Notes under the pieces: generated by a model
What the model saw: the letters and a program-made list of their open reading frames with translations, nothing else
What the model was told of the DNA's origin: nothing
Database searches by the model: none
Assembly (NCBI GenBank): GCA_029907355.1
Contig: JARYLZ010000004.1
Span: 5,007-69,006 of the forward strand
Source of the DNA: Bacteroidota bacterium
GTDB taxonomy: Bacteria > Bacteroidota > Ignavibacteria > SZUA-365
Direction of reading: 5' to 3'
DNA length: 64,000 bases
Part shown: positions 4,884 through 42,282 of the stretch, one piece after another
Layout of the letters: each line of letters begins with the position of its first letter
Position numbering within the stretch: the stretch's first letter is position 1
Translations under genes and position numbers: made by a program

Positions 4884-5278
4884 TGATCGTCGGTATCGGG
4901 ATCGATCTCGAGGAGGTCGGGCGTGTCGAAAAAGCCATCGAACGATGGGGCTCTCGTTTTCTGGAACGCATGTTTACGGACGAGGAAATTGCATACTGCT
5001 GCGGGAAGTTCCACCCTGCGCATCATTTTGCCGCGCGATTCGCAGCAAAGGAAGCGTTCGTCAAAGCGACAGGACTCGGCCGAAACAGTGGTTTCCGCTG
5101 GCGAGACGTCTCCGTGGTTAACGATGCTGCGGGAAAACCCTTTTTCCGACTGGCAGGAACTCACGACAATTTCCAGCCCCCAAACCGTATCCACCTTTCC
5201 ATCTCTCATATCCATTCCCACGTCGTCGCCGTCGTCGTCATCGAACGTCCGGAAGACAATGTGGAGTCAGAACCCTGA
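4883..5278 (+). CDS. acpS: holo-[acyl-carrier-protein] synthase (4'-phosphopantetheinyl transferase)
   Basis: 'MIVGIGIDLEEV...FAAKEAFVKA' is the AcpS signature. About 130 aa. Confidence 0.8.
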   Translation: MIVGIGIDLEEVGRVEKAIERWGSRFLERMFTDEEIAYCCGKFHPAHHFAARFAAKEAFVKATGLGRNSGFRWRDVSVVNDAAGKPFFRLAGTHDNFQPPNRIHLSISHIHSHVVAVVVIERPEDNVESEP

Positions 5279-26575: not shown

Positions 26576-27880
26576 GTGATCCTGCATCGCATCATCTTTC
26601 CCGCTTGTTTCCTTGTTGTCTATGGGATCTCTTCGGCAACAGGAATTCATCGAGGAGGAAACGACCCGAAACGCCATACGAGAGTCCAGGATACCGTCCG
26701 ACTGACGGAGGGCGTGCAGTATTTGGTACTCCGCGAAACTCCCTCGAAAATGACCGCGCATGTGTTACTTGTCGACCTTTCAAGGGGTGACCTCGGTGTG
26801 CGTGTCGGGAAGGCCTTGGAGAACATCGCAGGACTCGAACGAGTATACGAAACGATACACCGATACGACAGTCTCCGATCTTCGTGCGTCGTGCTCGGAG
26901 GAGTAAACGCGAATTTCTGGGCTGCAGGAACGAACCACCCGATCGGCCCGACTGTCATTGAAGGCGTCATCCTAAAGAATAAGAAGTACAAGAATTGGTC
27001 TGCGATTGCATTCGGAACCGATAAATCGATCACGATCGACACGTTCAACCTCGTAGTATCCCTTCGTACTCCATACGGCATTCTCCCCGTTGCTACCTTC
27101 AACGAACGTCTCGATTCCACTTCGGTGGTCGTTTATACACCCTACTACGGCACGTCGGTTCCCTTCGTAGATATCTCTGCCATCCTTCTCGCAAGTGCGG
27201 ACACGGTGACGGACGATTTGGAGGGAGGGAACGGTGTGACGGCACTCATCGATTCCGTCTGGTCGGTTAGTCCCGAAGGGGGAACACTCAAGGCACAATT
27301 CGAATACATGACACCGCCATTGGCGAATTCTCTGGTACCCTGTCGTGTTACGCTTGTCGATACAGGATTTGTTCCTATCCCGAGGAATGGGGGAGTTCTT
27401 TCCTTCGGGAGAGGTGCTTTCCCCATGTTCTTCAGTGTCATGGTTGGGGATACATTTACTCTGGAATCCCGTTTGAAACCAACCGTTCCAGTGCCTGTTC
27501 GGGAAATGGTAAGCGGTTCCCCGCGGCTTCTACGAAACGGCCAGGTGAGTATCGAATGGCAGGAAGAGGGCTTGAGAAAACCTCGATTCGTAACCCATGA
27601 TTACGCGAGAACCGCCATCGGCATTTCGCGGGATAGGCGGATCCTTATCCTTGTCACGGTTGAACCGCCGGACAGACGTGCCCGCAAGCGTGGAGCATCG
27701 CTCGAGACGCTTGCCGAGCTTCTGAGGATCTATGGAGCATCGGACGGCTTCAATCTCGATGGAGGCAGTTCTGCAACAATGGTTGTCCTCGGGGAAACCG
27801 TATCACCTCCACGGGGAAACCGTTTGAGCAGGAAAGTGTCGACCGTCCTGATGGTCGTCAAAATGGTGACCGGCTTATGA
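26576..27880 (+). CDS. secreted phosphodiester-glycosidase-family protein (NAGPA/DUF2233-like)
   Basis: N-terminal signal-like segment. 'NANFW' and 'NLDGGSSATMVV' motifs characteristic of this family. Confidence 0.55.
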   Translation: MILHRIIFPACFLVVYGISSATGIHRGGNDPKRHTRVQDTVRLTEGVQYLVLRETPSKMTAHVLLVDLSRGDLGVRVGKALENIAGLERVYETIHRYDSLRSSCVVLGGVNANFWAAGTNHPIGPTVIEGVILKNKKYKNWSAIAFGTDKSITIDTFNLVVSLRTPYGILPVATFNERLDSTSVVVYTPYYGTSVPFVDISAILLASADTVTDDLEGGNGVTALIDSVWSVSPEGGTLKAQFEYMTPPLANSLVPCRVTLVDTGFVPIPRNGGVLSFGRGAFPMFFSVMVGDTFTLESRLKPTVPVPVREMVSGSPRLLRNGQVSIEWQEEGLRKPRFVTHDYARTAIGISRDRRILILVTVEPPDRRARKRGASLETLAELLRIYGASDGFNLDGGSSATMVVLGETVSPPRGNRLSRKVSTVLMVVKMVTGL

Positions 27881-29755: not shown

Positions 29756-30895
29756 TTATTTCATACTCTTTCTAAATGATTCCCGAGATATATGCTGTAC
29801 ATGCTCGTGAATGATTTCCAGAGTTTTTTCTGCCGCAATCGCCCAGTCGAAAGAATTTGCCCACTCTCTTGCGTTTACACTCATTTTTCTTCTGAGATCA
29901 GCATCATCAAGGAGAATTCTCATTGCTGACGCAAGAGACTCGATATTCCCATATGGATAAAGAATACCTGTTACATTGTTTTTCACGGAATCCCGTAGTC
30001 CAGGGACATCCGCCGCGATGACGGGTACCCCGCATGCATTCGCCTCTATGACAGTCAAACCCCAACCTTCTTTGGATGAAGGCTGAACGGCAAAACGCAT
30101 TTTGTGGAGTAAAGGGGCTTTCTTCTTTTCATCGATGAAACCATGAAAATGAACTTGATCTCGAAGATCGAGCTTCTTTGTGACATTCTCTAACCTCGTT
30201 CGATCATCACCATCGCCGATAATATCTAGGGTGAGTTCGGGGTAATCTTTTCGAAGAAGGGAACACGCTTCAAGGAGATGATCAATTGATTTATACCTTT
30301 TCAAACGCCCGAAATAGCAAATACGGTATGGTTCATGCTCATCATTGAGAGAAGGGTAGTAGATTTCTTTATTGACACAGTAATTGATAATGGTAACCTG
30401 GTCACGCCGGAATCCCCACTCAGTATATTCACGGTAAGTACTGGGCGAACCAACGATGAAAGGGACATTTCGATAAACGGGTTTAATGAGTCTCTCAAAA
30501 AGAAAGATATAAAATGCAAATGGAAAAATTGCCTCGAGAAAAATACTTCGACCGAACAGATGATGGGTTACGGCAATGATCGGCTCGCGCACGAATAGAG
30601 GGGTGAAAAAAGGTATTTTGTTGATATCGTCAATAACGACGTCGAAATGTTCTTTCCGAAATTTCAATAAATATCGGATAGGAACGAGATAATTAAAGAG
30701 AAATCTTCCGCCTTGACGGATAATTCGAATACCGTTGCGCAATTCTTCTCGTGACGAACCCCTGTATCGATGACAGAAGAGTGTGACATCATGTCCGCGG
30801 CGTGCGATGCGTTCGAAAACCTCGTGGAGGTGAACCTCTGCACCGCCGGCTAATGGATTCGTTATATCCTGCCAGTTGAGAACGAGAATTTTCAT
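29756..30895 (-). CDS. glycosyltransferase family 4
   Basis: N-terminal 'GGAEVH' and a C-terminal GT-B 'E..G...IEA.A.G.PV' motif. Confidence 0.8.
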   Translation of the reverse strand: MKILVLNWQDITNPLAGGAEVHLHEVFERIARRGHDVTLFCHRYRGSSREELRNGIRIIRQGGRFLFNYLVPIRYLLKFRKEHFDVVIDDINKIPFFTPLFVREPIIAVTHHLFGRSIFLEAIFPFAFYIFLFERLIKPVYRNVPFIVGSPSTYREYTEWGFRRDQVTIINYCVNKEIYYPSLNDEHEPYRICYFGRLKRYKSIDHLLEACSLLRKDYPELTLDIIGDGDDRTRLENVTKKLDLRDQVHFHGFIDEKKKAPLLHKMRFAVQPSSKEGWGLTVIEANACGVPVIAADVPGLRDSVKNNVTGILYPYGNIESLASAMRILLDDADLRRKMSVNAREWANSFDWAIAAEKTLEIIHEHVQHISRESFRKSMK

Positions 30896-30912
30896 GTAAA
30901 GTACGAACAGCT

Positions 30913-31713
30913 TTATACAGAATTTATTTTCACCGTATCCTGTCGAACTTTTTCAGCAATTACACCAATCGAAAGTGCTGTGTGAAGCTGAAAAGAGGTC
31001 CCTTCTAAACGCTTTCTGAGACGTGACCGAAACAAAGCGAGAGATTTAATGAGAACAGGATACATGGGGAGGCGTATCCCCAGTCGAAGCAATACCTCGC
31101 GCGTTGCACGGTAAAAAAAACTCGGGTACATCCATTCACCGTATGCTGCTCGGAATACTAACCCAAGAGATTCCAGGATTCGTACCAACTCGTTGATGGA
31201 GAATTCGCGTTCCCAGCCTGCAAACCAGGCGTTGAGAGGGATCAATAGGTGTTTGATAAGAGTGTAGACATGCCAACGCTGTGGCACATCGACGAGAAGC
31301 AACCCTCCATCTTTCAATACACGGATATTTTCTTCAAGAATGCGGCGAGAATCGTCGAGTCTGAAATGTTCGAGTAGACCTTGGTGGAAAACCACGTCAA
31401 ATGTCCTGTCCTTAAAAGGCAATCGAAATGCATCACCGCCAATGATCGTGATATCGACACCCTCTGGTTTAAGTGATGACATTAACCGCAAAGCATGGAA
31501 CGCGTAATCGAGAAGGAACAATTCCGCTCCATCTTTCGCCATGAAAAACGTGTCTCTTCCTGTTCCAGCACCGACTTCAAGGATTCGTGAACCTTTCAAA
31601 GGACGGATTGAAGAAAGGTGCTTCCTGATGCGATCCGTGTTCGGGTATACCTCACGCGGGTCGGACTTTGTTTTCCAAAAATTTTCCCAGTTCTGTTTTG
31701 TCGACTGCTTCAT
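30913..31713 (-). CDS. class I SAM-dependent methyltransferase
   Basis: Motif I 'ILEVGAGTGRD'. Length 266 aa. Confidence 0.75.
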   Translation of the reverse strand: MKQSTKQNWENFWKTKSDPREVYPNTDRIRKHLSSIRPLKGSRILEVGAGTGRDTFFMAKDGAELFLLDYAFHALRLMSSLKPEGVDITIIGGDAFRLPFKDRTFDVVFHQGLLEHFRLDDSRRILEENIRVLKDGGLLLVDVPQRWHVYTLIKHLLIPLNAWFAGWEREFSINELVRILESLGLVFRAAYGEWMYPSFFYRATREVLLRLGIRLPMYPVLIKSLALFRSRLRKRLEGTSFQLHTALSIGVIAEKVRQDTVKINSV

Positions 31714-31845
31714 TCGTCAATATCGGCGAAAATGCATCTTCCGATAATATATATTATGTAAAGTATGATTTTTTACTCATTGTACACCGTTTTTCATATT
31801 CCCTCTCGTAAATGTACGCAATCCTTATGCTGCGTTCGATGCTAC

Positions 31846-32640
31846 CTACCACTCACGCAATCGTTTCGGGATACCTTCCAATGGGAGTGAAACCTGATAG
31901 AATTCTCGTGTAACCCTTTGCCAATACTCTCCCGTGATCTTTCCTCTTCCCAGCACAGCACAATACGCAAGACCGGTACGTTTCAAACCTTCGTTCGCTT
32001 CGAACGGATCGATGACGATTGCACCATTCGGTGGGATTCGGTATTTATCGCGTGAAAGCTGCTTCCCTCGATCAAGGTAAAAAGTCACTGCAACCGTGAC
32101 TGAGCTGTCACTTTCGGGATTTGAGAGAATCAGACGCGCTTGAACGTCGGGATCGGCAACAAAATGTTGGCACAATAAAGCTTCCGCGCCTTCGCCGTCA
32201 GCCACCGGAAGCGCAGTGTTGAAGGGTCTTTCCTTCTCCTGTCGATGGAACTGCCAGTATTGTGCGGCCACGTTCCCGCCGTCAGAAATAATTCGGATTG
32301 TTCCTTGGAATATTTTGCCAAGGAGACGTGCCGACGGGTCGTAATTTACTTTACCGAATATAGGAAGGAAATATGCTTCCTCATCAAGGAGCGTTCCCGA
32401 TGTATCATAAACAAGGACGTTGACGACTGCGCCGCTTCCCTCAACGTCTGTGATGACAAGATGGTTCTCAAAGTTTTGGGGGTCCGAAACGAAGTAATTC
32501 AGCACGAGTTGATCCCCAACTCGCAAACTTCTTCGTTCTTGCTCCTCTCCTCCGATCTGGGCAAGTGTGGCGCCGTGCAAAAAGATGCCCCAAAGAACAG
32601 CGGTGAAAGAAGCCGTTCTGATGCTCGGGAGGAAATTCAC
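31846..32640 (-). CDS. secreted hypothetical protein, tandem paralog B, with an internal two-fold repeat
   Basis: Signal peptide present. Shares with the upstream paralog the pattern 'F.SDP......HhVh.DV.G.G..h.h..h...G.L.......L..FGK.NY.P' and the terminal 'GKITGEYWQ'. Confidence 0.5.
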   Translation of the reverse strand: MNFLPSIRTASFTAVLWGIFLHGATLAQIGGEEQERRSLRVGDQLVLNYFVSDPQNFENHLVITDVEGSGAVVNVLVYDTSGTLLDEEAYFLPIFGKVNYDPSARLLGKIFQGTIRIISDGGNVAAQYWQFHRQEKERPFNTALPVADGEGAEALLCQHFVADPDVQARLILSNPESDSSVTVAVTFYLDRGKQLSRDKYRIPPNGAIVIDPFEANEGLKRTGLAYCAVLGRGKITGEYWQRVTREFYQVSLPLEGIPKRLREW

Positions 32641-33410
32641 CGAATCTTTGTCACGCCTTCAAGAGGTAAAGCGAGGCGGTATTTTTCAATTTGTGAAGAT
32701 TGCCAATACTCGCCTGTGATTTTACCGGGTCCGACGACAACGATATATGCCGTCCCGGTCATTTTCAGTCCCTTCGTTACCTTGTAGGGGTTGATTCGCA
32801 CGATCCCGTTCGGCTGAATGATGAACTTTTCGGTAGCTACCAGCCCCCCGTCGTCCGAGTACATCTTTACATTGATAGTCACAGGCCGCATATCCTCTGC
32901 ATTGGCCACGACAATGGTCGCCTCGATAGATTTATCCGATACGAAATGCTGACAGACGAGTTTGTCGTACCCCTCGCCTGCCGACGCAGGAACGGCGATG
33001 TTCATATACCCGTTCTTCGGGGTTGTGTACATCTCCCAGTACTGGCCGATCAAGTTCCCGCCGTCGCTTTCGATACGAACCGTTCCCTGGAACTTCGGGT
33101 TCTGGTTGTACCCATGCTGGTAGGCGTTGAGATACGTCAGAGGATTGTAATTCAATTTCCCGAATGCTTGGAGGGTCTCATAGCGTTCATAGACGAGGCG
33201 TCCATCATCGCTGAAAATTGAGATACGAATGTTCGGTCCGACACCGTCGACGTCGCTGACGACGACGTGTGTCTGGATTTGCTCGGGATCGGACGCGAAG
33301 TTGCTGATGATCAATTTACTTCCCGTCTGTGCGTGTGAAGGCATCAGCCCGGAACACACGGCGAACGTAATGGCAATCGCAGCCACGGTCGTGTTGCGCG
33401 CTTTCAGCAT
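32637..33410 (-). CDS. secreted hypothetical protein, tandem paralog A, with an internal two-fold repeat
   Basis: Start taken at 'MLKARNTTVAAIAITFAVCSGLMPSHAQ' (signal peptide), with AGGAGG 11 nt upstream. Each half ends in '..GEYW'. Paralogous to 31846..32640. Confidence 0.5.
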   Translation of the reverse strand: MLKARNTTVAAIAITFAVCSGLMPSHAQTGSKLIISNFASDPEQIQTHVVVSDVDGVGPNIRISIFSDDGRLVYERYETLQAFGKLNYNPLTYLNAYQHGYNQNPKFQGTVRIESDGGNLIGQYWEMYTTPKNGYMNIAVPASAGEGYDKLVCQHFVSDKSIEATIVVANAEDMRPVTINVKMYSDDGGLVATEKFIIQPNGIVRINPYKVTKGLKMTGTAYIVVVGPGKITGEYWQSSQIEKYRLALPLEGVTKIR

Positions 33411-34249
33411 TGAGATAGTCCTCCTGGGAGATGTTGTAAAACGATACGATGCGGAGCAAGAAAACGTTGTACCCACGCGCGGTAGGTCTGCACAGGGAGT
33501 TCGAGAAAAGCTTCCGCGTACTGTGCCGTTCGCTCGAAGGTTATGGCGCGATACGCATTCAACCCCAAAATATGGTGCCCGTAATCGAGCGACGCAAGTT
33601 GGCTTACGTACATCGCAGTCGCCTTACGTTTCGTTGCGATGTGCTCGCTGATATCAATGACGATGTTGGCCGGAAGAGGTGTCCAGACCTCGAATGCCCG
33701 GACCAGACAGTTGTCCAAGCCGACCATCCCGCATGCAGAGGCGAAAGCGATATTGACCCGTCGGTGATCTTCATGGTTATCGAATATCGATGGAAGATAC
33801 AAAAGACGGGGTTGTTTCTCAACGAGTACCTTCGCCAGCAAATCACAAGCGCATTTCGACGCGAGTTCCGCCGGCGCGAGATCTAGATATCGAACACTCC
33901 GAACGCCGAGAGCGTCCATCGCCTGTCGAAATTCCGCTAAGCGCGTTCGCCGTGTTTCTTCGTCCGTTATCCACTCCTGGCGGATACTCCCAGCGTTGTT
34001 GGAACACAGGACAACAGTGAGTTGATCCCCATGGGCGACGTGCAGAGCGATAGTCCCTCCCACCCCGAACGTCTCATCATCGGCATGGGGAGAGAGGACG
34101 ACCACACTCCCCTCCCCTTCGTATGGAAAAAGTGCCTGCCTCGGATATACGGTGAGATTCTGATTGATGACGAGTTCGAGATAGTTTCTCGCGCGCCCTA
34201 CGAGACGTTTTCGGGAAAACCGATTGGCCATGCGATCCAAAATTTTCAT
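33404..34249 (-). CDS. PIG-L/LmbE-family N-acetylglucosaminyl deacetylase
   Basis: 'VVVLSPHADDETFGVGGTI' zinc-binding signature. Confidence 0.75.
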   Translation of the reverse strand: MKILDRMANRFSRKRLVGRARNYLELVINQNLTVYPRQALFPYEGEGSVVVLSPHADDETFGVGGTIALHVAHGDQLTVVLCSNNAGSIRQEWITDEETRRTRLAEFRQAMDALGVRSVRYLDLAPAELASKCACDLLAKVLVEKQPRLLYLPSIFDNHEDHRRVNIAFASACGMVGLDNCLVRAFEVWTPLPANIVIDISEHIATKRKATAMYVSQLASLDYGHHILGLNAYRAITFERTAQYAEAFLELPVQTYRAWVQRFLAPHRIVLQHLPGGLSQC

Positions 34250-34800
34250 TCTCTTTCCTTAGGGAGTTTCCCTTTTGAAAAAATTGTTCGTGTACCCATC
34301 CGAAGAACAGTAATTTTACCGGTGATCGTATACCCTGCCTTCATAATGCCGCGAATCGAAGGGAGATTGCCTTTTTCTGCGTAAATCCAGGTTCGTGTAC
34401 ACGCCAGGTTCATATCATCCGCCCAGTTTATCCATTCGAGAGCTGCAGGGTAGTACCCTCTCCCCCGGTACAATGGAGCAGTGACACAATCATACACGCA
34501 AAGGTTCCCTTCCGGTATAATCCACTTTCGGTCGATTTCATCGATGTGGAGTTCGTTTCCAGTCACCCAGCAAAGAAAGACGACGCGTTCACCGTTGTTC
34601 CCCCAAACTGCGCAGTGACCGTCGCGAAAGCGACGCCTATACTCATCGTGATAGGGGAAATCGCTCATCGCGAGCCATGGGAACTCTGACGGGACGACGG
34701 TCGATGTGAAAGAGACATCGGGCGACGTGCGGGGAGGTTCTCCCGTTCTCGTCCGCCGAGAGAAAAATATCAGTGTTGCAAGATTCACCCCATGACACAT
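34246..34800 (-). CDS. GNAT-family N-acetyltransferase
   Basis: Motif A-like 'VTAPLYRGRGYYPAAL'. Confidence 0.5.
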   Translation of the reverse strand: MCHGVNLATLIFFSRRTRTGEPPRTSPDVSFTSTVVPSEFPWLAMSDFPYHDEYRRRFRDGHCAVWGNNGERVVFLCWVTGNELHIDEIDRKWIIPEGNLCVYDCVTAPLYRGRGYYPAALEWINWADDMNLACTRTWIYAEKGNLPSIRGIMKAGYTITGKITVLRMGTRTIFSKGKLPKERE

Positions 34801-34808
34801 CGCTCGCT

Positions 34809-35972
34809 CTATTCTTCAGCGTATTGGGCTAGGTTGAAACGGGTCAGTCGTCGAACTACGTTTCGAAAACCCCGATACGACCGAGCGGAACAGTAACGAA
34901 GCGAGACCGATGGGGGCACGATATGCCAATGTCTGCTCCGTGTTTCCTCGGCACCAAGATCACGTTTATACCGTTCCGTCCCCCGTAAAAGGTCAAGAAC
35001 AATCTCTCCGCTTCGCTCTCCATTCGCTGAATCCCAATACGGTAAGCAATCCCAGAGGTACGATAGATTCCCGAACCCCGGTGTGAGGAAACTCGCGGCG
35101 GGATCCATTCCTGAGAGAAAGTAGGAGAACGTGTTTCCCGACCGAAAAAGTAAGATGGTGTGGATGACGTGATCCCCGAACCACACTTCGGAATGCACAA
35201 AAGCATCCCCACAGAGACGGGCAAGGAGGAGAAGGAAGTCGACGTTCCGCTGCTCAGAAAAAAACGATCTTTCCCTGAAACGCTGCCGATTCAAGGAAAT
35301 GAGCGTTGACAACGCCTTGTCCGTCGTTCCCTGGAACACACGAATTCCTAGACGATGGGAGATGCGATGCTCTTCCCAGTGTCTTAGAGCACGACGTATC
35401 GACGGGTGCACACACGAAGCATCGGCAGCGCGGCAATGTTTCCAGCATGCTAATCGCAAGCTACGAAAAACGGACCCCGGGTTCGTTTCGACCCGCCACT
35501 CCTTTGGGATCTCTGCCGATTCGATGCTGTCCCCGGTTCTTACCTCGTTGAACTGATACCATGCGTGAGGAAACACACTTCGGCAGAACGCGAACACGGC
35601 TTCCCACGCTTTATTGATGTACTGGTCAGGCGAGATAAGCTCGAAATAGGGAGTAAGCCCTTCACCGATCCAGTGGATATGTTCCCATGCCACGGACGTG
35701 CCGATGCGTCTTCTCTGGATGAAGAAAGGGGCTGCGAAGAGAATGTCATCCCCCTCTGTTCCCGTCAGCAAGCATAATTCGCGCTGCGGATTCCCCTCAC
35801 CGAACGATTCCCACCAGGCAGCAATCCATTCCCAACGTTGGAAAAAGGTCGCCCTGGATAATCGCCCGCTCGCATAGATCTCCCTCCACCATCTCTTCAG
35901 GCGTTCGTCGTGGAAATCCGTTCGTTCGATTTTCACGTGCCGCCTCTCCAACCGACGATCCGGGCGGGACAC
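34809..35972 (-). CDS. FemAB/CelD-like (BioF2-like) acyl/aminoacyl-transferase family protein
   Basis: About 390 aa with the GNAT_acetyltr_2-type architecture that is commonly placed in glycan loci. Confidence 0.45.
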   Translation of the reverse strand: MSRPDRRLERRHVKIERTDFHDERLKRWWREIYASGRLSRATFFQRWEWIAAWWESFGEGNPQRELCLLTGTEGDDILFAAPFFIQRRRIGTSVAWEHIHWIGEGLTPYFELISPDQYINKAWEAVFAFCRSVFPHAWYQFNEVRTGDSIESAEIPKEWRVETNPGSVFRSLRLACWKHCRAADASCVHPSIRRALRHWEEHRISHRLGIRVFQGTTDKALSTLISLNRQRFRERSFFSEQRNVDFLLLLARLCGDAFVHSEVWFGDHVIHTILLFRSGNTFSYFLSGMDPAASFLTPGFGNLSYLWDCLPYWDSANGERSGEIVLDLLRGTERYKRDLGAEETRSRHWHIVPPSVSLRYCSARSYRGFRNVVRRLTRFNLAQYAEE

Positions 35973-36502
35973 CCGACAGCGATGGCACGGGGGGGGATAT
36001 CATGCGTGACAGTTGTGTTCGCTCCGATCACTGCGCCATCGCCGATGGTCACGCCGGCAAGAACGACACTCATCGTCCCGATCCATACGTCCTTTCCGAT
36101 ACAGATGGGACGCTTTACCCCGCCCTGCTCCCGAATAGGGATATCCGTGCTCTTGAACGTGTGATGGGCATCGATGATCGAGACGAAACCCGCGATGAGG
36201 GTATCCTTTCCGATCCGCACAGACCCTGAAACGGTACAGTGTTGCGAGATGAAAACGTTTTCCCCGATATCCATTTCATCTTTGCACTCGACGATCAACC
36301 AGCTGTCCTGCAGGATTTGTACACCGGCACCGATTTGGATTCTCCCTCCCTCATGCACATCAATGTGTACACGCCTTCCGAAAGAAACCGAGGGGTGGAT
36401 TTCATGTCCGGCACGGCGCAATCTTCCGACAACCGCTTTCCGTTCAAGACTCTCCCAGGAGACGAATACACGTTGAAGGAAAGATGGGACCCAACGGAAC
36501 AT
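35933..36502 (-). CDS. hexapeptide-repeat (LbH) sugar O-acetyltransferase
   Basis: Repeated [LIV]G..... hexads 'IGKDVWIGTMSVVLAGVTIGDGAVIGANTTV'. Confidence 0.75.
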   Translation of the reverse strand: MFRWVPSFLQRVFVSWESLERKAVVGRLRRAGHEIHPSVSFGRRVHIDVHEGGRIQIGAGVQILQDSWLIVECKDEMDIGENVFISQHCTVSGSVRIGKDTLIAGFVSIIDAHHTFKSTDIPIREQGGVKRPICIGKDVWIGTMSVVLAGVTIGDGAVIGANTTVTHDIPPRAIAVGCPARIVGWRGGT

Positions 36503-36506
36503 CGCG

Positions 36507-37805
36507 TCATTTCCCCGGGATAGTAATATTTTCTATTTCATGCCGATGGCGATAGAGATAGAGGAGAGAAACCGTCCCTGCGATGGACCATATCAGAACC
36601 GTACTCAACGCCGCCCCCAATGCACCGAGCCAGCGAATGAACAGGTAATGGGAGAAAACAGTCAAGCATAGTTGCACAAAGCTGATCATTGCTGCGGCCG
36701 AAGCCCGGCCGATCGAAAGAACGAGCGTCGTGAGAGGGTTGCCGAAAATCGTCCAGGCATATCCGATGAAGAGAATGGAAAACAGTGGGATGGAGGGGGT
36801 ATAGTTCGGGAACATAGACGGAATCATCAGGACGATGACCGCCCCGTAGATCATGGAGAGTCCGATCAACGGGAGCGTCACCTGCAACGTACGACGTACG
36901 TAATGGCGCATGTCATCCAGGCAGCGCAGAGCCATTGCTTTCGGGAAAAACACGGTCGACACGGAACCCGTAAGAACGATGAGAGGTGTGCACAAGCGCA
37001 CGGCCGCCGCATAGTGCCCAATTTCATCCGGCTGGTTGGAAAGCAAGGGAGGGAGCATGAACATGTCGATCCGCATGAGAAACATCGTAGAAAAAGACGT
37101 GAGCATCATCCATCTGCCAAACGTGACAACCTCCCTCCCGATTTCTTTCCACCCGTACGAGGCGAAATCGGGTTCTTTCCGAATGCTGACAGCGCCTGCG
37201 AGACCTACGACGAACGGCACTGTCACGTATGCCGAGTACACGAGATTCAGCGAAAACATGCCTCCCAGGATTCCCGCCACGATCACCCCGATCTTCCCGA
37301 AGCTTTCCATGACACGCAATGCAGTCAATCGGGCGAACTCTTGACGCGCTTGAAAGACTGCTTGCGAAAACTCGAAGATTCCACTCCCCACGACGCCGAC
37401 ACTGAGTAAACGGAATGGAAATGCGAGCGCAGGCATGCGGAACACGTGTACAGCCAGAATCGGCGCGGTACAGAATAGGAGAATGCCTGTACCCACGATG
37501 GCGATGATCTTCACCCTCCATGCGAATCGGAGATGCGCCCATGCACGATGTTTATCGGTTTTTTCATAGAGCGCGAAGAAACGAATGAAACTCGCATGAA
37601 GCCCCGAATCCGTGAACTGATTCACTGTGGCAAGAACCGTGATGAATACACCGTACAGAGCGTACTCCGCCGGCGTAACAAGTTTCAACAGGAGGAGCGT
37701 GATGAGAAACGTCAGGAATTTCGCAAGGACATCACCAGCGAAAACTATGCCGCTTTCACGTGCGGTCGAAGGGATCGCATTCCTGACGTGCTCAAACAAA
37801 GGCAT
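36507..37805 (-). CDS. Wzx-like oligosaccharide flippase (polysaccharide biosynthesis protein)
   Basis: 432 aa with about 12 TM segments, placed within a glycan locus. Confidence 0.7.
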   Translation of the reverse strand: MPLFEHVRNAIPSTARESGIVFAGDVLAKFLTFLITLLLLKLVTPAEYALYGVFITVLATVNQFTDSGLHASFIRFFALYEKTDKHRAWAHLRFAWRVKIIAIVGTGILLFCTAPILAVHVFRMPALAFPFRLLSVGVVGSGIFEFSQAVFQARQEFARLTALRVMESFGKIGVIVAGILGGMFSLNLVYSAYVTVPFVVGLAGAVSIRKEPDFASYGWKEIGREVVTFGRWMMLTSFSTMFLMRIDMFMLPPLLSNQPDEIGHYAAAVRLCTPLIVLTGSVSTVFFPKAMALRCLDDMRHYVRRTLQVTLPLIGLSMIYGAVIVLMIPSMFPNYTPSIPLFSILFIGYAWTIFGNPLTTLVLSIGRASAAAMISFVQLCLTVFSHYLFIRWLGALGAALSTVLIWSIAGTVSLLYLYRHRHEIENITIPGK

Positions 37806-38934
37806 CGGTCAATGCGGGGATTTGCTCATAGTTCCGGATAAGGGTGCGATAGGCTCTGATCGTCTGTTCGGCTGTCGCCGACCATGTATACCGTGCTCTG
37901 ACCCGTTCACGCAAGGGGGTCGTTGGGCGGGTGTCGGAAAGTGCCCGCATGAGTGCGTCGCGCACCGATTGAACAGATGCCGGGTCGCAATAAATGGCTT
38001 CATCCCCGAAATATTCGGATGCAGACCCATATTGCGTACATACAATTCTACAGCCGGCTGCTGCAGCTTCGAGGCTCGTGAGCCCCGGTGTTTCAAACCA
38101 GCTCGGTTGAGCGTGGATGCGTGCCGAAGCGAAGAACGGCCATGTTTCCTCCCAGGGGCGCCCCCCATAGTGATACAAGCGTACTCTGAATTTCCTGGAC
38201 TCGAACTGGCATTGGGACCAGTATGCCCTCTCGGCCATATTTACGTTGCCGAGGAGGATTAAAGGCATGTCGATTCCTTCCATTGCGCGGATCAATGTCC
38301 TTTGATTTTTCCTCCGCTCAATACGTCCGACGCAGAGGATATACTCAGCAGGGACACCGTCCGGCAGGTTCATCTCCCCATCGAGGAAACGGCAACCGTT
38401 TCGGACTATGAGCATCGGTGATTGCGTACCGAATCGTTCCCGAAGCATTTCCGCTTCGATCATGGAATTCGGGAGGATGAGGTCCGCATTCGCGAGAACG
38501 TTCGACAAGCATCTCCGGAAGTAGGGATTGTAATGAACGCTCTTCAATCTCCTTTCGAGCAGTTTCGCGATACGAGGACCGTTCAATTGTCGTGCGAGAA
38601 AGAGGATCGCTTTCTTCCACAGCGCGACAGCGCCCCCTCGTTCCTCGTAGGTTTCCATATCCCAATAAATGGGGGACAGCACAACCGGAATACCCTCTGA
38701 GCGCGCCTCACGGAGAGATGAACGATACTGGTGAACGAGTAAAAGGTTGAAAGCGTGTACCAGGTCGAATGCCTTAAGCATCGAGCGGGGGAGCGTGCAC
38801 TGTCCGTCTGAGACGAGTTCCAGACGGACTTCAACTCCCCTCTTCACCAATTCTTCCCTCGTCGCGAGGATCTGCGTTGTGTCTCCGCCCGGGTTCGTCA
38901 GGAGATTATTCCGGGCTAAGAAAAGGACCTTCAT
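37792..38934 (-). CDS. glycosyltransferase family 4
   Basis: 'MKVLFLARNNLLTNPGGDTTQI' and a GT-B C-terminal domain. Confidence 0.8.
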   Translation of the reverse strand: MKVLFLARNNLLTNPGGDTTQILATREELVKRGVEVRLELVSDGQCTLPRSMLKAFDLVHAFNLLLVHQYRSSLREARSEGIPVVLSPIYWDMETYEERGGAVALWKKAILFLARQLNGPRIAKLLERRLKSVHYNPYFRRCLSNVLANADLILPNSMIEAEMLRERFGTQSPMLIVRNGCRFLDGEMNLPDGVPAEYILCVGRIERRKNQRTLIRAMEGIDMPLILLGNVNMAERAYWSQCQFESRKFRVRLYHYGGRPWEETWPFFASARIHAQPSWFETPGLTSLEAAAAGCRIVCTQYGSASEYFGDEAIYCDPASVQSVRDALMRALSDTRPTTPLRERVRARYTWSATAEQTIRAYRTLIRNYEQIPALTDAFV

Positions 38935-38955
38935 GGTCGGAACGCTCCTCGATTC

Positions 38956-40011
38956 TCACGCCATGGCATGGAGATAGGCGGCAATATGTTCACCGGCAAC
39001 CCTCTCCCACGAGAGGTTTCGGACGAAGGCAGATGCACGACGGATACGTTCTTTCGTGGCAAGAATATCGGGTTTCACGAGAAGGTTCGTCAAGAAATTC
39101 AGGAGTTCCTCTCCGCTGGTAAAGTAGAATGTATGTTCCCTGATAGCGGGGAAAGATTCGAAATAGCGTCTCTTGATTTCCGACAAGGCAGGGACGATAA
39201 CCGGCCGGCCGGCTCGGAAGGCATCGAGAATTCCGAGGTAACCCGTCCCAATGACATAGTTAGCGGCGGCATAGAAGGGACCGATTTCCGTGGTTGGGGG
39301 ATGACGTGTAATGTTCAGGGATCCGCCAGCCAGAGCCTTGAGGTCATGAACCAGTTGTCCACAACCCACGAGAACGAGATGCACCGGCACACCAGCAACG
39401 TTTGCGGCCTTCGCGAGACATTCGGTGGTCTCCTTGATGCCAGTGTCTTCCGCCCATCGCCCGATAAACACGTAAGTATGATGATGCTCCCATGGAGGGG
39501 CCGTGTTGTCATGGATCGGCGCTCCGAGGTACACATGGTCAATCCGCTGGCCGTACAAGGCACGAACGTACTCCCCTACACCGAACGTAACATTCATGCA
39601 CCGGGCGGTGAAACGTCGAAGCACCACATCAACATAGCGCACGGGCCACGAATCGAAGCCATGAAACGTTGTAGCGAATACGGGGTGGCGAAAGAAAAGA
39701 CGAAATGGGAGAAACCAGTGGAAGAAGGTGCCATAATCATGAAAATGGAGAACGTCCGCTGCCGCAAAAACCCGCCGATGCTTCCAGATCCAGAACCAGC
39801 GCAATAAACGGGTGAAAGGCCGAACTCTTCTGACCCCGAACCGGAGGACGCGTACACCGTCTGGAGCATTCAGTTCCTTGCCGTTGTTCGACTCCGTGAT
39901 GATGGTGACCTCATGACCGCCTTTCGTCATTTCCGACGCAAGCGCATGGACGGCCAACTCCACCCCTCCGATGTCCGGGAGATAGCGATCTGTCAGGAAA
40001 ACGATCTGCAT
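38956..40011 (-). CDS. glycosyltransferase (GT4-like)
   Basis: 'MQIVFLTDRYLPDIGGVELAVHAL' N-terminal GT-B fold. Confidence 0.7.
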   Translation of the reverse strand: MQIVFLTDRYLPDIGGVELAVHALASEMTKGGHEVTIITESNNGKELNAPDGVRVLRFGVRRVRPFTRLLRWFWIWKHRRVFAAADVLHFHDYGTFFHWFLPFRLFFRHPVFATTFHGFDSWPVRYVDVVLRRFTARCMNVTFGVGEYVRALYGQRIDHVYLGAPIHDNTAPPWEHHHTYVFIGRWAEDTGIKETTECLAKAANVAGVPVHLVLVGCGQLVHDLKALAGGSLNITRHPPTTEIGPFYAAANYVIGTGYLGILDAFRAGRPVIVPALSEIKRRYFESFPAIREHTFYFTSGEELLNFLTNLLVKPDILATKERIRRASAFVRNLSWERVAGEHIAAYLHAMA

Positions 40012-40033
40012 CGACCCTGGACCTTCGTCTGCA

Positions 40034-41227
40034 TCAGTGCCTGTTCTTGATGTTCACCTTCATGTAGAATTCATATCGGGGCGGTTCGGCGGTTTCGCAG
40101 GTATAGCCGTAATCCTTGACGAACACACCGTCTAAAAACTGATCCGTCGGGTCCCAGGGTTTATCGAAATCCGCTCCGGGTTTGTAAAGGAAATCGATCG
40201 CCTTTACTGCGTTCCATTTCACCTCCCATGATTCCCGATTGTCGCGGTGGAGATCGATGAAATGGGTAATGTGGTCGGAGGAATTGTATTCCGGGAAACC
40301 GCTATAGAGTTCGACGTTTCCGCAAGATGTGTTTTCAACATGACGGATTGCGAGAGAACGGACGAGTTTATGCAAGGCGCTCCCGTACTCACCATCCGAG
40401 CCGTGAGTCAAGACAATTGTCGGGCACGGTTCCTCAATCCTCCTCGCGAGAGCGCGTTCGATAGCAACATGGAGAAAGGAGGTCTCCCCGAAACTCAGTG
40501 CGAAATCCGTCCCGGGAACTTCCCCGATCTGGACGATTCTTTTTCGCTCGACAACGGTGTCGACGGGTAACACGGAGATGTCGATCCCGAGAATCGCCGC
40601 GTATCTCTTGATGGTTTCGAGCTTATTGATCCCTGCACGATCGGTCACGATGCGGAGATGCCTGTCTTTGAAATAACCGGCGCTGTTATACCCTCCAAGG
40701 AGATCCGATGGTTGTTCCGAAGTTCCCGCCGAACCATCCGCACCGTTGGAGACGAGAATCACCTTGACATTCCATCCCTTTCGTGCGGCATAGGCGAGCA
40801 AACCTCCGGCCAAGAGAACCTCATCGTCCGGATGTGCAAAAACGCCGAGAAGTATTTTCCCTTTCCCGCTATCCTGAAGGATACGCGCGGCGAGATCGTG
40901 AAATCCTCTTTGTAGTAGATCCCGTGGTGACTTCAGATACCCCTCATGGTCATCTTCGTCGAAGACGGAGAGGAAATAATCAATCTTGTTCTTCTCACCG
41001 GGAACGCTGTTGTACATGTAATCGTGTTTGTAGACGACCGGGTGATCGACGCCGGGCCATTCATCGAAATCCCATGTTCCATGGGATATACCTCGAGGGA
41101 TATCGTAACCGCGCCGGAACATGGAAGGATCGGCTTTGAACGGAATCTCCGTTTGCGAGAGAGCGATCTTGTTGGCCAGGACCGATAAGGCGGCAACACC
41201 GAGAACGAACCATGCCTCTATTCGCAT
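40034..41227 (-). CDS. exported PIG-L/LmbE-family deacetylase with an N-terminal extension
   Basis: Signal peptide plus 'ILLGVFAHPDDEVLLAGGLL'. Confidence 0.7.
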   Translation of the reverse strand: MRIEAWFVLGVAALSVLANKIALSQTEIPFKADPSMFRRGYDIPRGISHGTWDFDEWPGVDHPVVYKHDYMYNSVPGEKNKIDYFLSVFDEDDHEGYLKSPRDLLQRGFHDLAARILQDSGKGKILLGVFAHPDDEVLLAGGLLAYAARKGWNVKVILVSNGADGSAGTSEQPSDLLGGYNSAGYFKDRHLRIVTDRAGINKLETIKRYAAILGIDISVLPVDTVVERKRIVQIGEVPGTDFALSFGETSFLHVAIERALARRIEEPCPTIVLTHGSDGEYGSALHKLVRSLAIRHVENTSCGNVELYSGFPEYNSSDHITHFIDLHRDNRESWEVKWNAVKAIDFLYKPGADFDKPWDPTDQFLDGVFVKDYGYTCETAEPPRYEFYMKVNIKNRH

Positions 41228-41235
41228 TGGAACTC

Positions 41236-42282
41236 CTATTCCATAATGAATGGGATCACGCGATCTTTACGCCCCCAAGTAATCCGGAGCAAGTACATCC
41301 CGCGTGGCATTGCCGGGCGTTCCGTTGCGAGGAAAACGGGAACGAGGTGTCGACCCGGTACAGCTGCCATGTACTCGAACACCTTCAAGGAACGACCGAA
41401 CTCGTCATAAACCTCCAGTTTCAGACATCCAGCCTCCGTGCTCGAAAAATCAACGAGGAGATACCGGGATTCTGATCTGCCGAATGGAATGGGGTAGACT
41501 TCCGGATCGGTCAAACCATGAGTCGGGTTTTCCCCGAAGTATTCCGCTTTCATAATGATCTCTACAAGCCGTTCTGCGATAGCAAGATGGCCTTGAGCCG
41601 TCGGATGGATACCATCCCTCCCGATGCAGGACGAATCAGTAAAAGAGTAAGGGATTTCGAGAAATCGTCCCGAGCATTCCATCGCCGTTCGGCAGATCGC
41701 TTCCTGGTAACGTGATAGATGGAAACCCGTACCGCCATACCGTTCGTAGAGGGAAGGCGGCGAGAAAAAGGAGAAACGATACTCGTTCAGGGGCGGAAGC
41801 CCGAGAAAAATCGGTACAGCACCGATCCCCTGTATCTTCCGGCATATGAGTCTGAGATTCGAGATAAAACGTTCAAGCGGCACACGGGGTGAGGTTGTGA
41901 ATCCGTGTATGTATAGATCATTCGTACCAAAAGAGACAACTACGATAGAGGGGCCAAAAGTCAGCACATCTCTGTCGATACGCAGGAGAGCATCATCCGT
42001 CGTCTCCCCTGCTCGGCCGAGGTTCCGGACCGTATAACAATGACCTTCTGCACGAAACATCGAGTCGCAACGTGAGGGATAGGCGAGATCCGGCCTGAGA
42101 ACTCCATCGATCCACCCCTCTGTGATTGAATCCCCGAAAAAAAGAATGAGTCCCTGCGGGTCGCTGCGAGGTCCCGTTCCCGCCGATATCAGGACCGGCG
42201 AAAAGAGAAGAGCGAAGATGAAGCGGTTAACAGGGAAAGGCACCCTCGGCTGCAAGGATGCAAACTGTCGTTTCATGGGCAA
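41236..42282 (-). CDS. SGNH/GDSL esterase with a T9SS C-terminal sorting domain
   Basis: 'LILFFGDSITEGW' block I. The C-terminal 'LKLEVYDEFGRSLKVFE...GMYLLRIT...' resembles a Por-secretion tail. Confidence 0.65.
   Translation of the reverse strand: MPMKRQFASLQPRVPFPVNRFIFALLFSPVLISAGTGPRSDPQGLILFFGDSITEGWIDGVLRPDLAYPSRCDSMFRAEGHCYTVRNLGRAGETTDDALLRIDRDVLTFGPSIVVVSFGTNDLYIHGFTTSPRVPLERFISNLRLICRKIQGIGAVPIFLGLPPLNEYRFSFFSPPSLYERYGGTGFHLSRYQEAICRTAMECSGRFLEIPYSFTDSSCIGRDGIHPTAQGHLAIAERLVEIIMKAEYFGENPTHGLTDPEVYPIPFGRSESRYLLVDFSSTEAGCLKLEVYDEFGRSLKVFEYMAAVPGRHLVPVFLATERPAMPRGMYLLRITWGRKDRVIPFIME

Follow-up and report, generated by a model that had tools for sequence, protein, structure and literature searches.

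Two tandem genes within a glycan cluster

The window analysed here is a stretch of 64,000 nucleotides (nt) from a Bacteroidota bacterium (Ignavibacteria; SZUA-365), i.e., positions 5,007 to 69,006 of the forward strand of contig JARYLZ010000004.1 (assembly GCA_029907355.1). It contains a 13-gene glycan cluster in which two adjacent genes, hereafter A and B, encode paralogous proteins with a predicted signal peptide and two copies of a module of about 100 amino acids (aa). This pair is the subject of the present study. A first-pass annotation, made from the sequence alone, had described tandem secreted proteins of 264 and about 258 aa overlapping as ATGA. The first length is that of B, while A has 257 aa; the overlap reads GTGA. 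The flanking genes named there, a deacetylase upstream (PIG-L, PF02585) and a methyltransferase downstream (Methyltransf_11, PF08241) within a glycan locus, were found as described, and the peptide strings quoted for the repeat are present in A. No further member of the family besides A and B was found in the 64-kb window. The features of the pair are the following.

33420-33425, minus strand: ribosome-binding site of A (AGGAGG), 9 nt upstream of the ATG, read from the sequence
33404-33410, minus strand: 7-nt overlap of the start of A with the stop of the upstream PIG-L gene, read from the sequence
32637-33410, minus strand: gene A, open reading frame (ORF) of 257 aa, ATG start; predicted exported protein with two ASRAH-like beta-sandwich modules; 100% match to the hypothetical protein QHI48_01350 of a metagenome-assembled genome (MAG)
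33330-33410, minus strand: predicted signal peptide of A (heuristic), residues 1-27, MLKARNTTVAAIAITFAVCSGLMPSHA then Q
33027-33323, minus strand: module 1 of A, residues ~30-128 (model strands 32-128; repeat E 1e-10), ending in GQYWE
32661-32969, minus strand: module 2 of A, residues ~148-250 (model strands 150-249), starting with CQHFVSD and ending in TGEYWQ, with Asn170 at the end of strand 2
32637-32640, minus strand: GTGA overlap of the stop of A and the start of B, read from the sequence
31846-32640, minus strand: gene B, ORF of 264 aa, GTG start; predicted exported paralogue of A with two modules
32560-32640, minus strand: predicted signal peptide of B (heuristic), residues 1-27, MNFLPSIRTASFTAVLWGIFLHGATLA then Q
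32245-32517, minus strand: module 1 of B, residues ~42-132 (model strands 44-132; repeat E 4e-7)
31879-32187, minus strand: module 2 of B, residues ~152-254 (model strands 154-253), with a weak DUF5719 match at 153-212

The GTGA overlap points to translational coupling of A and B, and the 7-nt overlap to that of A with the PIG-L gene. A scan for promoters and terminators around the genes gave nothing exceeding the shuffled expectation.

Paralogy and internal duplication

A and B are 41% identical across 228 aa (E 7e-60), i.e., they are tandem paralogues as annotated. The two-fold repeat is found in each protein: the N-half and the C-half are 30% identical across 106 aa in A (E 1e-10) and 28% identical across 90 aa in B (E 4e-7), and the cross comparison of the N-half of B with the C-half of A gives E 5e-12. 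By these comparisons the internal repeat is well beyond chance, with a module of about 100 aa. The N-halves of the two proteins match each other with E 7e-26 and the C-halves with E 5e-39. Since both values are stronger than those between the halves of one protein, the duplication of the module predates that of the gene. Many polar residues are invariant in the family, including Cys153, Gln154, His155, Glu234, Tyr235 and Gln237; in more distant dyads Cys153 is replaced by Val or Ile.

Export and cellular location

The N-termini of A and B have a positive charge, a hydrophobic core of 12-15 residues (Kyte-Doolittle values of 2.38 for A and 1.89 for B) and small residues at -3/-1. Gln28, right after the predicted cleavage site, is invariant in 28 A homologues and in 34 aligned B sequences; a Gln at +1 is the pattern termed the Bacteroidetes Q-rule (PMC5837995). 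On these heuristic grounds the signal peptides of the first-pass annotation appear correct. The N-terminal helices of both AlphaFold models have a lower confidence.

No conserved lipobox was found in A or B: Cys19 of A lies in an F-A-V-C context and is not conserved. The possibility that they are lipoproteins was rejected for this reason. No type-IX C-terminal sorting domain (Por_Secre_tail or CHU_C) matches A or B at E<=10, and the CHU_C matches of 4 of 31 relatives (E 0.01) are at chance level. The C-terminal ~100 aa of each protein are the second copy of the module. OmpA_C (PF00691) is absent from both proteins in the Pfam scan, and neither has a hydrophobic stretch outside the signal peptide. 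Given the lack of an anchor, a lipobox and a type-IX signal, together with the OmpA_C and TonB_C partners found in relatives, A and B are most likely soluble periplasmic proteins.

Predicted fold

A and B were modelled singly with AlphaFold on family alignments. The predicted local distance difference test (pLDDT) is 89.4 for A and 90.4 for B, and the predicted template modelling score (pTM) is 0.82 for both. Each model has an N-terminal helix, after which come two all-beta domains; with about eight strands, each of these is a beta-sandwich. Searched with Foldseek against the PDB, both models match TM1070 of Thermotoga (PDB 1nc7) with a probability of 1.00: the template modelling (TM) score is 0.75-0.77 and the root-mean-square deviation (rmsd) 2.3-2.6 Å over 115-117 columns for A, and 0.76 and 2.4-2.6 Å for B. 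TM1070 is the only solved structure with a low rmsd to both models, as judged from the Foldseek scores. As modelled, A and B each have the eight-stranded beta-sandwich fold of TM1070.

The top-ranked Foldseek rows are GH2 enzymes with an rmsd of 16-18 Å and a TM score <0.2. The full-length matches to GH2 glycosidases, birnavirus VP2 and arrestin (TM score 0.13-0.20, rmsd 16-23 Å) were discarded as generic beta-sandwich artefacts. The family profile, compared with all PDB sequences, gave chance matches only (HIF-3alpha and MmpS5, E 0.15-0.46).

Relationship to the ASRAH superfamily and DUF5719

The ASRAH superfamily of beta-sandwich domains was defined by De Souza, Iyer & Aravind in 2009, with sugar binding as the predicted function (PMC2739507). 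Its domains occur as tetramers, dyads or tetrads; three families were described: cytoplasmic ASRT-like proteins with a solo domain, among them the ASRT orthologue TM1070; muramoyl-alanine amidases to which a tetrad is fused; and, in Actinobacteria, a lipoprotein with a dyad that is linked to a glycosyltransferase (PMC2739507).

The first-pass annotation saw no recognisable family in A and B. This holds at curated thresholds and no further. In the Pfam scan A has no DUF5719 (PF18986) match and B has a single one of 15.9 bits (E 0.007), below the gathering cut-off of 26.2 bits; neither protein matches PF07100 (DUF1362) at E<=10, and the NCBIfam scan gave no match. At the level of remote homology, i.e., the fold of TM1070, the profile match to ASRT described below and relatives that pass the DUF5719 threshold, the family becomes recognisable. 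The remote-homology search recommended with that annotation leads to TM1070 by Foldseek and to ASRT, hence the ASRAH superfamily, by HHalign.

For HHalign, the ASRT sequence (PDB 2ii7), that of TM1070 and ASRT homologues were gathered. They were compared with a broad profile of 168 modules (effective number of sequences, Neff, ~7), to which distant relatives had been added from a scan of 1.84 billion representative proteins. The broad profile matches ASRT with 85-92% probability (E 7e-7 to 6e-6) over 93-103 columns. The match holds with any of the four A/B modules as master, and reversed-sequence controls give 0.2-0.3%. Asn170 of module 2 of A, at least 90% conserved, is aligned with Asn38 of ASRT (Asn32 of TM1070), the hallmark Asn ending strand 2. 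In module 1 an invariant Asp53 occupies this place; the hallmark is present in one module and substituted in the other. There is no Trp at the start of strand 1, which contains an invariant Phe38/Phe156, and the HHalign register is of low confidence there. The identity of the A/B modules to ASRT and TM1070 is only 8-9%, and no direct HMMER match to them exists.

DUF5719 matches at E<=1e-5 are found in 22 of 65 scanned distant relatives; several clear the gathering cut-off by a wide margin, and scores of 42-56 bits occur among the distant relatives. Closer to A and B, a 43%-identical paralogue of a related MAG (locus L042) narrowly passes with 26.6 bits, and 8 of 31 family members have weak matches. 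In distant relatives the module is repeated beside catalytic domains (GH26, Amidase_3, M10, arylsulfotransferase); the Amidase_3 fusions, found in 3 of the scanned relatives, resemble ASRAH family 2. From the profile comparisons and the models we conclude that the A/B modules are ASRAH-superfamily domains related to DUF5719. A and B themselves are relatives of DUF5719 below the curated threshold, hence not members by the curated rule. DUF5719 of Pfam probably corresponds to the actinobacterial ASRAH family 3. In the literature no paper mentioning DUF5719 was found, and ASRAH is named only in the 2009 paper. What is new here is the paired, diderm-periplasmic form of ASRAH/DUF5719 dyad proteins.

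Distribution and types of loci

The family is small: 202 of the 1.84 billion representative proteins match at E<=1e-3 and 15 at E<=1e-30. All close homologues are unnamed proteins of uncultured MAGs labelled Bacteroidota, Ignavibacteria or Chlorobiota. Every family gene in the 51 loci compared has exactly two modules. The genes form adjacent same-strand pairs in 43 of these loci; of the remaining loci, three are contig ends. Three types of loci can be distinguished.

In type 1 (about 25 loci, each from a species-level MAG), A is followed by B inside a complete syntenic 13-gene cluster, with 54-79% identity for A. The pair is conserved beside the PIG-L (LmbE) and GT4 genes in these MAGs, a point that the first-pass annotation had left to be checked. 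Type-2 loci contain a further pair that shares about 40-45% identity with A and B; its first member (A') ends in an OmpA peptidoglycan-binding domain. The OmpA_C-fused member has ~369 aa and is followed by a dyad of ~236 aa (e.g., L042 9968-11841; also L002-L005 and L033-L051). OmpA_C is found only in such paralogous A' proteins (P0044, P0046-48, P0115 and that of L042). Types 1 and 2 occur together in at least 17 MAGs. Type 3 consists of three loci in which a single dyad gene follows a TonB_C protein; GT4/GT2 genes come next in two of the three (Ignavibacteria MAGs). These dyad genes lie at L029 9845-10657, L030 9848-10657 and L032 8576-9418. Among more distant relatives, single-chain proteins of four modules are also found (L052 7992-9353, L053 7806-9302).

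Two further observations concern individual MAGs. One contig (L045, from 6294 onward) has a third family member, with two modules within a 484-aa ORF, ~3.7 kb upstream of the OmpA-fused pair. MAG records labelled «uncultured Chromatiales» or «Ectothiorhodospiraceae» (L006, L008, L009, L011, L021, L025 and L027) contain this syntenic cluster just as the Ignavibacteria/Bacteroidota MAGs do; these labels are probably wrong.

Comparison with known systems

The actinobacterial dyad lipoprotein (family 3) is like A and B in being exported, in being a dyad of the same beta-sandwich module, and in its genomic link to glycosyltransferases, to one of which it is sometimes fused; its predicted ligand is the polysaccharide that the linked enzymes produce (PMC2739507). 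Its neighbours are WhiB, a glycosyltransferase and an inactive zincin (PMC2739507), whereas A and B lie in a Wzx/GT4/PIG-L cluster. A and B differ also by: (i) the lack of a lipobox Cys and of N- or C-terminal extensions; (ii) their diderm Ignavibacteria/Bacteroidota-like hosts, as opposed to Actinobacteria; (iii) the tandem paralogous genes, with a second, OmpA-fused pair per genome.

TM1070 (1nc7) and ASRT (2ii7; PF07100/DUF1362) share with A and B the eight-stranded beta-sandwich, and the profile match covers nearly the whole domain. Unlike A and B, which carry predicted signal peptides and two domains, they are single-domain, cytoplasmic proteins with His/Cys pocket residues. Four domains may be the working unit in both cases, as a homotetramer for ASRT/TM1070 and, presumably, as two dyads for A and B.

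In exopolysaccharide tailoring machines such as those of PgaB (C-terminal domain) and AlgX (carbohydrate-binding module), a non-catalytic, beta-rich periplasmic module keeps the growing glycan in place for a de-N-acetylase or an acetyl-handling enzyme of SGNH type. The A/B operon likewise encodes a signal-bearing PIG-L deacetylase and an SGNH protein; the likeness is one of working mode and no homology is claimed. The PgaB and AlgX modules differ in being fused to the enzyme, in having other folds and in belonging to synthase-dependent systems with outer-membrane porins.

Proposed role of A and B

The explanation that we prefer, and to which we give an even chance, is that A and B join in the periplasm as a soluble heteromer with four ASRAH domains, which binds the glycan of the cluster after flipping. 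A and B would be produced from a single, translationally coupled message that also encodes the enzymes of a Wzx-dependent pathway for a glycan or glycolipid. They would be exported by Sec, then cleaved by signal peptidase I to leave an N-terminal Gln. The two would then assemble into a heteromer of four domains, corresponding, with two chains, to the homotetramer of ASRT/TM1070 and to the relatives that have four modules on a single chain. Such a heteromer is suggested by the tetrameric state of TM1070, the occurrence of the superfamily as dyads or tetrads, the existence of single-chain tetrads and the near-universal pairing of the genes (43/51 loci). Once the flippase delivers the product to the periplasmic face, the heteromer would bind its sugar moiety and either present it to the exported tailoring enzymes (signal-bearing PIG-L deacetylase, SGNH esterase) or escort it across the periplasm. 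The type-2 pair, with its OmpA-type domain, would serve as the counterpart anchored to the wall. A connection with glycans is supported by the 13-gene synteny in about 25 species-level MAGs, by the dyad genes beside GT4/GT2 in two Ignavibacteria loci and by the glycosyltransferase linkage of the actinobacterial dyad lipoprotein (PMC2739507).

The enzyme set of the cluster comprises three GT4, two de-N-acetylases, up to three N-acyltransferase-like proteins and one methyltransferase. As it comes without polymerase, ligase or exporter, it suggests, speculatively, that the product is a short, heavily modified amino-sugar glycan or glycolipid.

Several points weigh against this role:
(i) No recognisable polymerase (Wzy), ligase or outer-membrane exporter was found in the cluster by the Pfam and NCBIfam scans.
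(ii) Sugar binding by ASRAH is a prediction of 2009 (PMC2739507), ligand binding having been demonstrated for no secreted ASRAH/DUF5719 protein, and work on ASRT itself has treated it as a protein that binds and loops DNA (PMC8660804).
(iii) The ASRT link is transitive, because profiles of close relatives only give a weak match: the family-only module profiles reach 6-26% probability (E 0.006 at 6%), in the right register, and were set aside as too weak to count as evidence.
(iv) The SHEshChhN ligand residues of ASRT are not conserved in A and B, the His falling in a gap and the Cys opposite Val167 in the HHalign alignment; the ASRT His/Cys ligand residues are likewise not conserved in other secreted ASRAH families (PMC2739507).
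(v) The type-2 pair lies among housekeeping genes (HflX, RsmI-like methylase, BatA, DUF92) and not among glycan genes.
(vi) The tetrads have a conserved context of sigma70, RecO, fused GlyRS, the tetrad and a 1293-aa HEAT-repeat protein, without glycan genes.

The glycan link is therefore not universal for the family, since both the second pair and the single-chain tetrads sit in non-glycan contexts. The periplasmic carrier or lectin role put forward in the first-pass annotation stands in part: it agrees with the sugar binding predicted for the superfamily (PMC2739507) and with the conserved synteny, and it is retained here as a proposal.

Another explanation is that A and B are general envelope scaffolds which bind peptidoglycan or outer-membrane components, their place in the cluster being a lineage-specific accident of gene order. 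We consider it unlikely. The OmpA_C-bearing paralogous pair among housekeeping genes of the same genomes speaks for it, as do the single-dyad genes that follow TonB_C proteins and the ASRAH modules fused to N-acetylmuramoyl-L-alanine amidases in other phyla (PMC2739507). A and B, however, have no anchoring domain and are coupled in translation to the PIG-L gene, and the order of the 13 genes persists across about 25 species with only 54-79% identity, which is longer than neutral synteny usually lasts.

It is quite improbable, though consistent with part of the data, that A and B act in the periplasm as sensors or carriers of something other than a sugar, be it a metal, a small metabolite or the lipid portion of a glycolipid. 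By its original definition the superfamily binds small molecules, with pocket residues that differ between families (PMC2739507). The conserved Cys-x-His might coordinate a metal, but the Cys is not conserved beyond the A/B lineage. The cluster enzymes (three GT4, deacetylases, N-acyltransferases, no polymerase) fit a glycolipid, and the four-module relatives occur in non-glycan contexts; against this reading, there is no hydrophobic stretch outside the signal peptide.

The invariant polar residues listed above, including the CQH and GEYWQ motifs, and conserved Asp/Glu could also be catalytic. A and B would then be a novel periplasmic enzyme, e.g., one that modifies or transfers glycans, standing in for the polymerase or ligase that, with the exporter, the cluster lacks. 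This is very unlikely: no catalytic family is matched in the Pfam, NCBIfam and PDB profile searches, Cys153 becomes Val or Ile in more distant dyads, and distant relatives use the module as a repeated accessory beside GH26, Amidase_3, M10 and arylsulfotransferase domains, as is usual for binding modules.

That A and B are abundant envelope glycoproteins decorated by the cluster, an idea raised by tandem paralogous exported proteins encoded in a glycosylation-type cluster, is hardly credible and was rejected: neither contains the Bacteroidota O-glycosylation motif D(S/T)(A/I/L/V/M/T), the sole N-x-S/T sequon is inside the signal peptide of A, and both are small, compact beta-sandwiches in the models, without a low-complexity Ser/Thr region.

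The four-domain heteromer can be extended, as a long shot, to the four ancient paralogues. These would make two periplasmic machines built of ASRAH domains only: the soluble A/B would load a lineage-specific amino-sugar glycolipid or glycan at the flippase, and the peptidoglycan-anchored A'/B' would receive it. Such a route across the periplasm would replace the missing polymerase, ligase or exporter genes. If true, the secreted ASRAH/DUF5719 superfamily would gain its first function, and a new way of transporting envelope glycoconjugates would come to light.

The secreted ASRAH/DUF5719 branch has been an uncharacterised prediction since 2009. The present locus is a compact test case, with two small soluble proteins modelled at high confidence, a defined 13-gene pathway that presumably makes the ligand, and a peptidoglycan-anchored paralogous pair. 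A ligand, if shown, would give a function to DUF5719-type domains, including that of the conserved actinobacterial lipoprotein, and would inform on the envelope glycoconjugates of never-cultured Ignavibacteria-like bacteria. If nothing binds, A and B are two more hypothetical beta-sandwich proteins. Either way, the result is a solid improvement of annotation rather than a surprise.

The cluster and its surroundings

The order of the genes in the cluster is: SGNH, PIG-L, GT4, GT4, Wzx-type flippase, hexapeptide acetyltransferase, Acetyltransf_6, a 184-aa protein of no known family, PIG-L, A, B, methyltransferase and GT4. The cluster and the elements that flank A and B are as follows.

29756-42282, minus strand: 13-gene glycan cluster (Pfam and NCBIfam; synteny in locus L001 and in more than 20 MAG loci)
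33404-34249, minus strand: PIG-L/LmbE-type deacetylase, cytoplasmic-looking, upstream of A (PF02585, E 6.9e-22; syntenic in all type-1 loci)
31714-31845: AT-rich gap of 132 bp between the stop of B and the start of the methyltransferase gene
30913-31713, minus strand: S-adenosylmethionine (SAM) methyltransferase, downstream of B (PF08241, E 5.4e-18)

The G+C content is 0.446 over 30000-32000, i.e., the methyltransferase and the last GT4, against 0.52-0.55 in the neighbouring regions. With the AT-rich gap, this low value indicates that the last two genes of the cluster may form a transcription unit of their own or have been added later.

The first PIG-L protein (40034-41227, minus strand, 397 aa) has a signal-like start, MRIEAWFVLGVAALSVLANKIALS then Q, and ~125 residues ahead of its PIG-L domain (residues 129-294). 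It is apparently an exported de-N-acetylase, which sets it apart from the cytoplasmic-looking PIG-L protein at 33404-34249. The SGNH protein also begins with a signal-like segment, as judged by eye. The 184-aa protein (34246-34800, minus strand) has no Pfam or NCBIfam match; it is present with 29-40% identity in nearly all syntenic loci and contains a GNAT-like YRGRGYY motif, seen by eye.

Adjoining the cluster, a 434-aa protein (26576-27880, plus strand) has no NCBIfam match, and its counterpart in L001 has PF09992 (NAGPA, phosphodiester glycosidase). It is possibly a further glycan-processing enzyme kept beside the locus.

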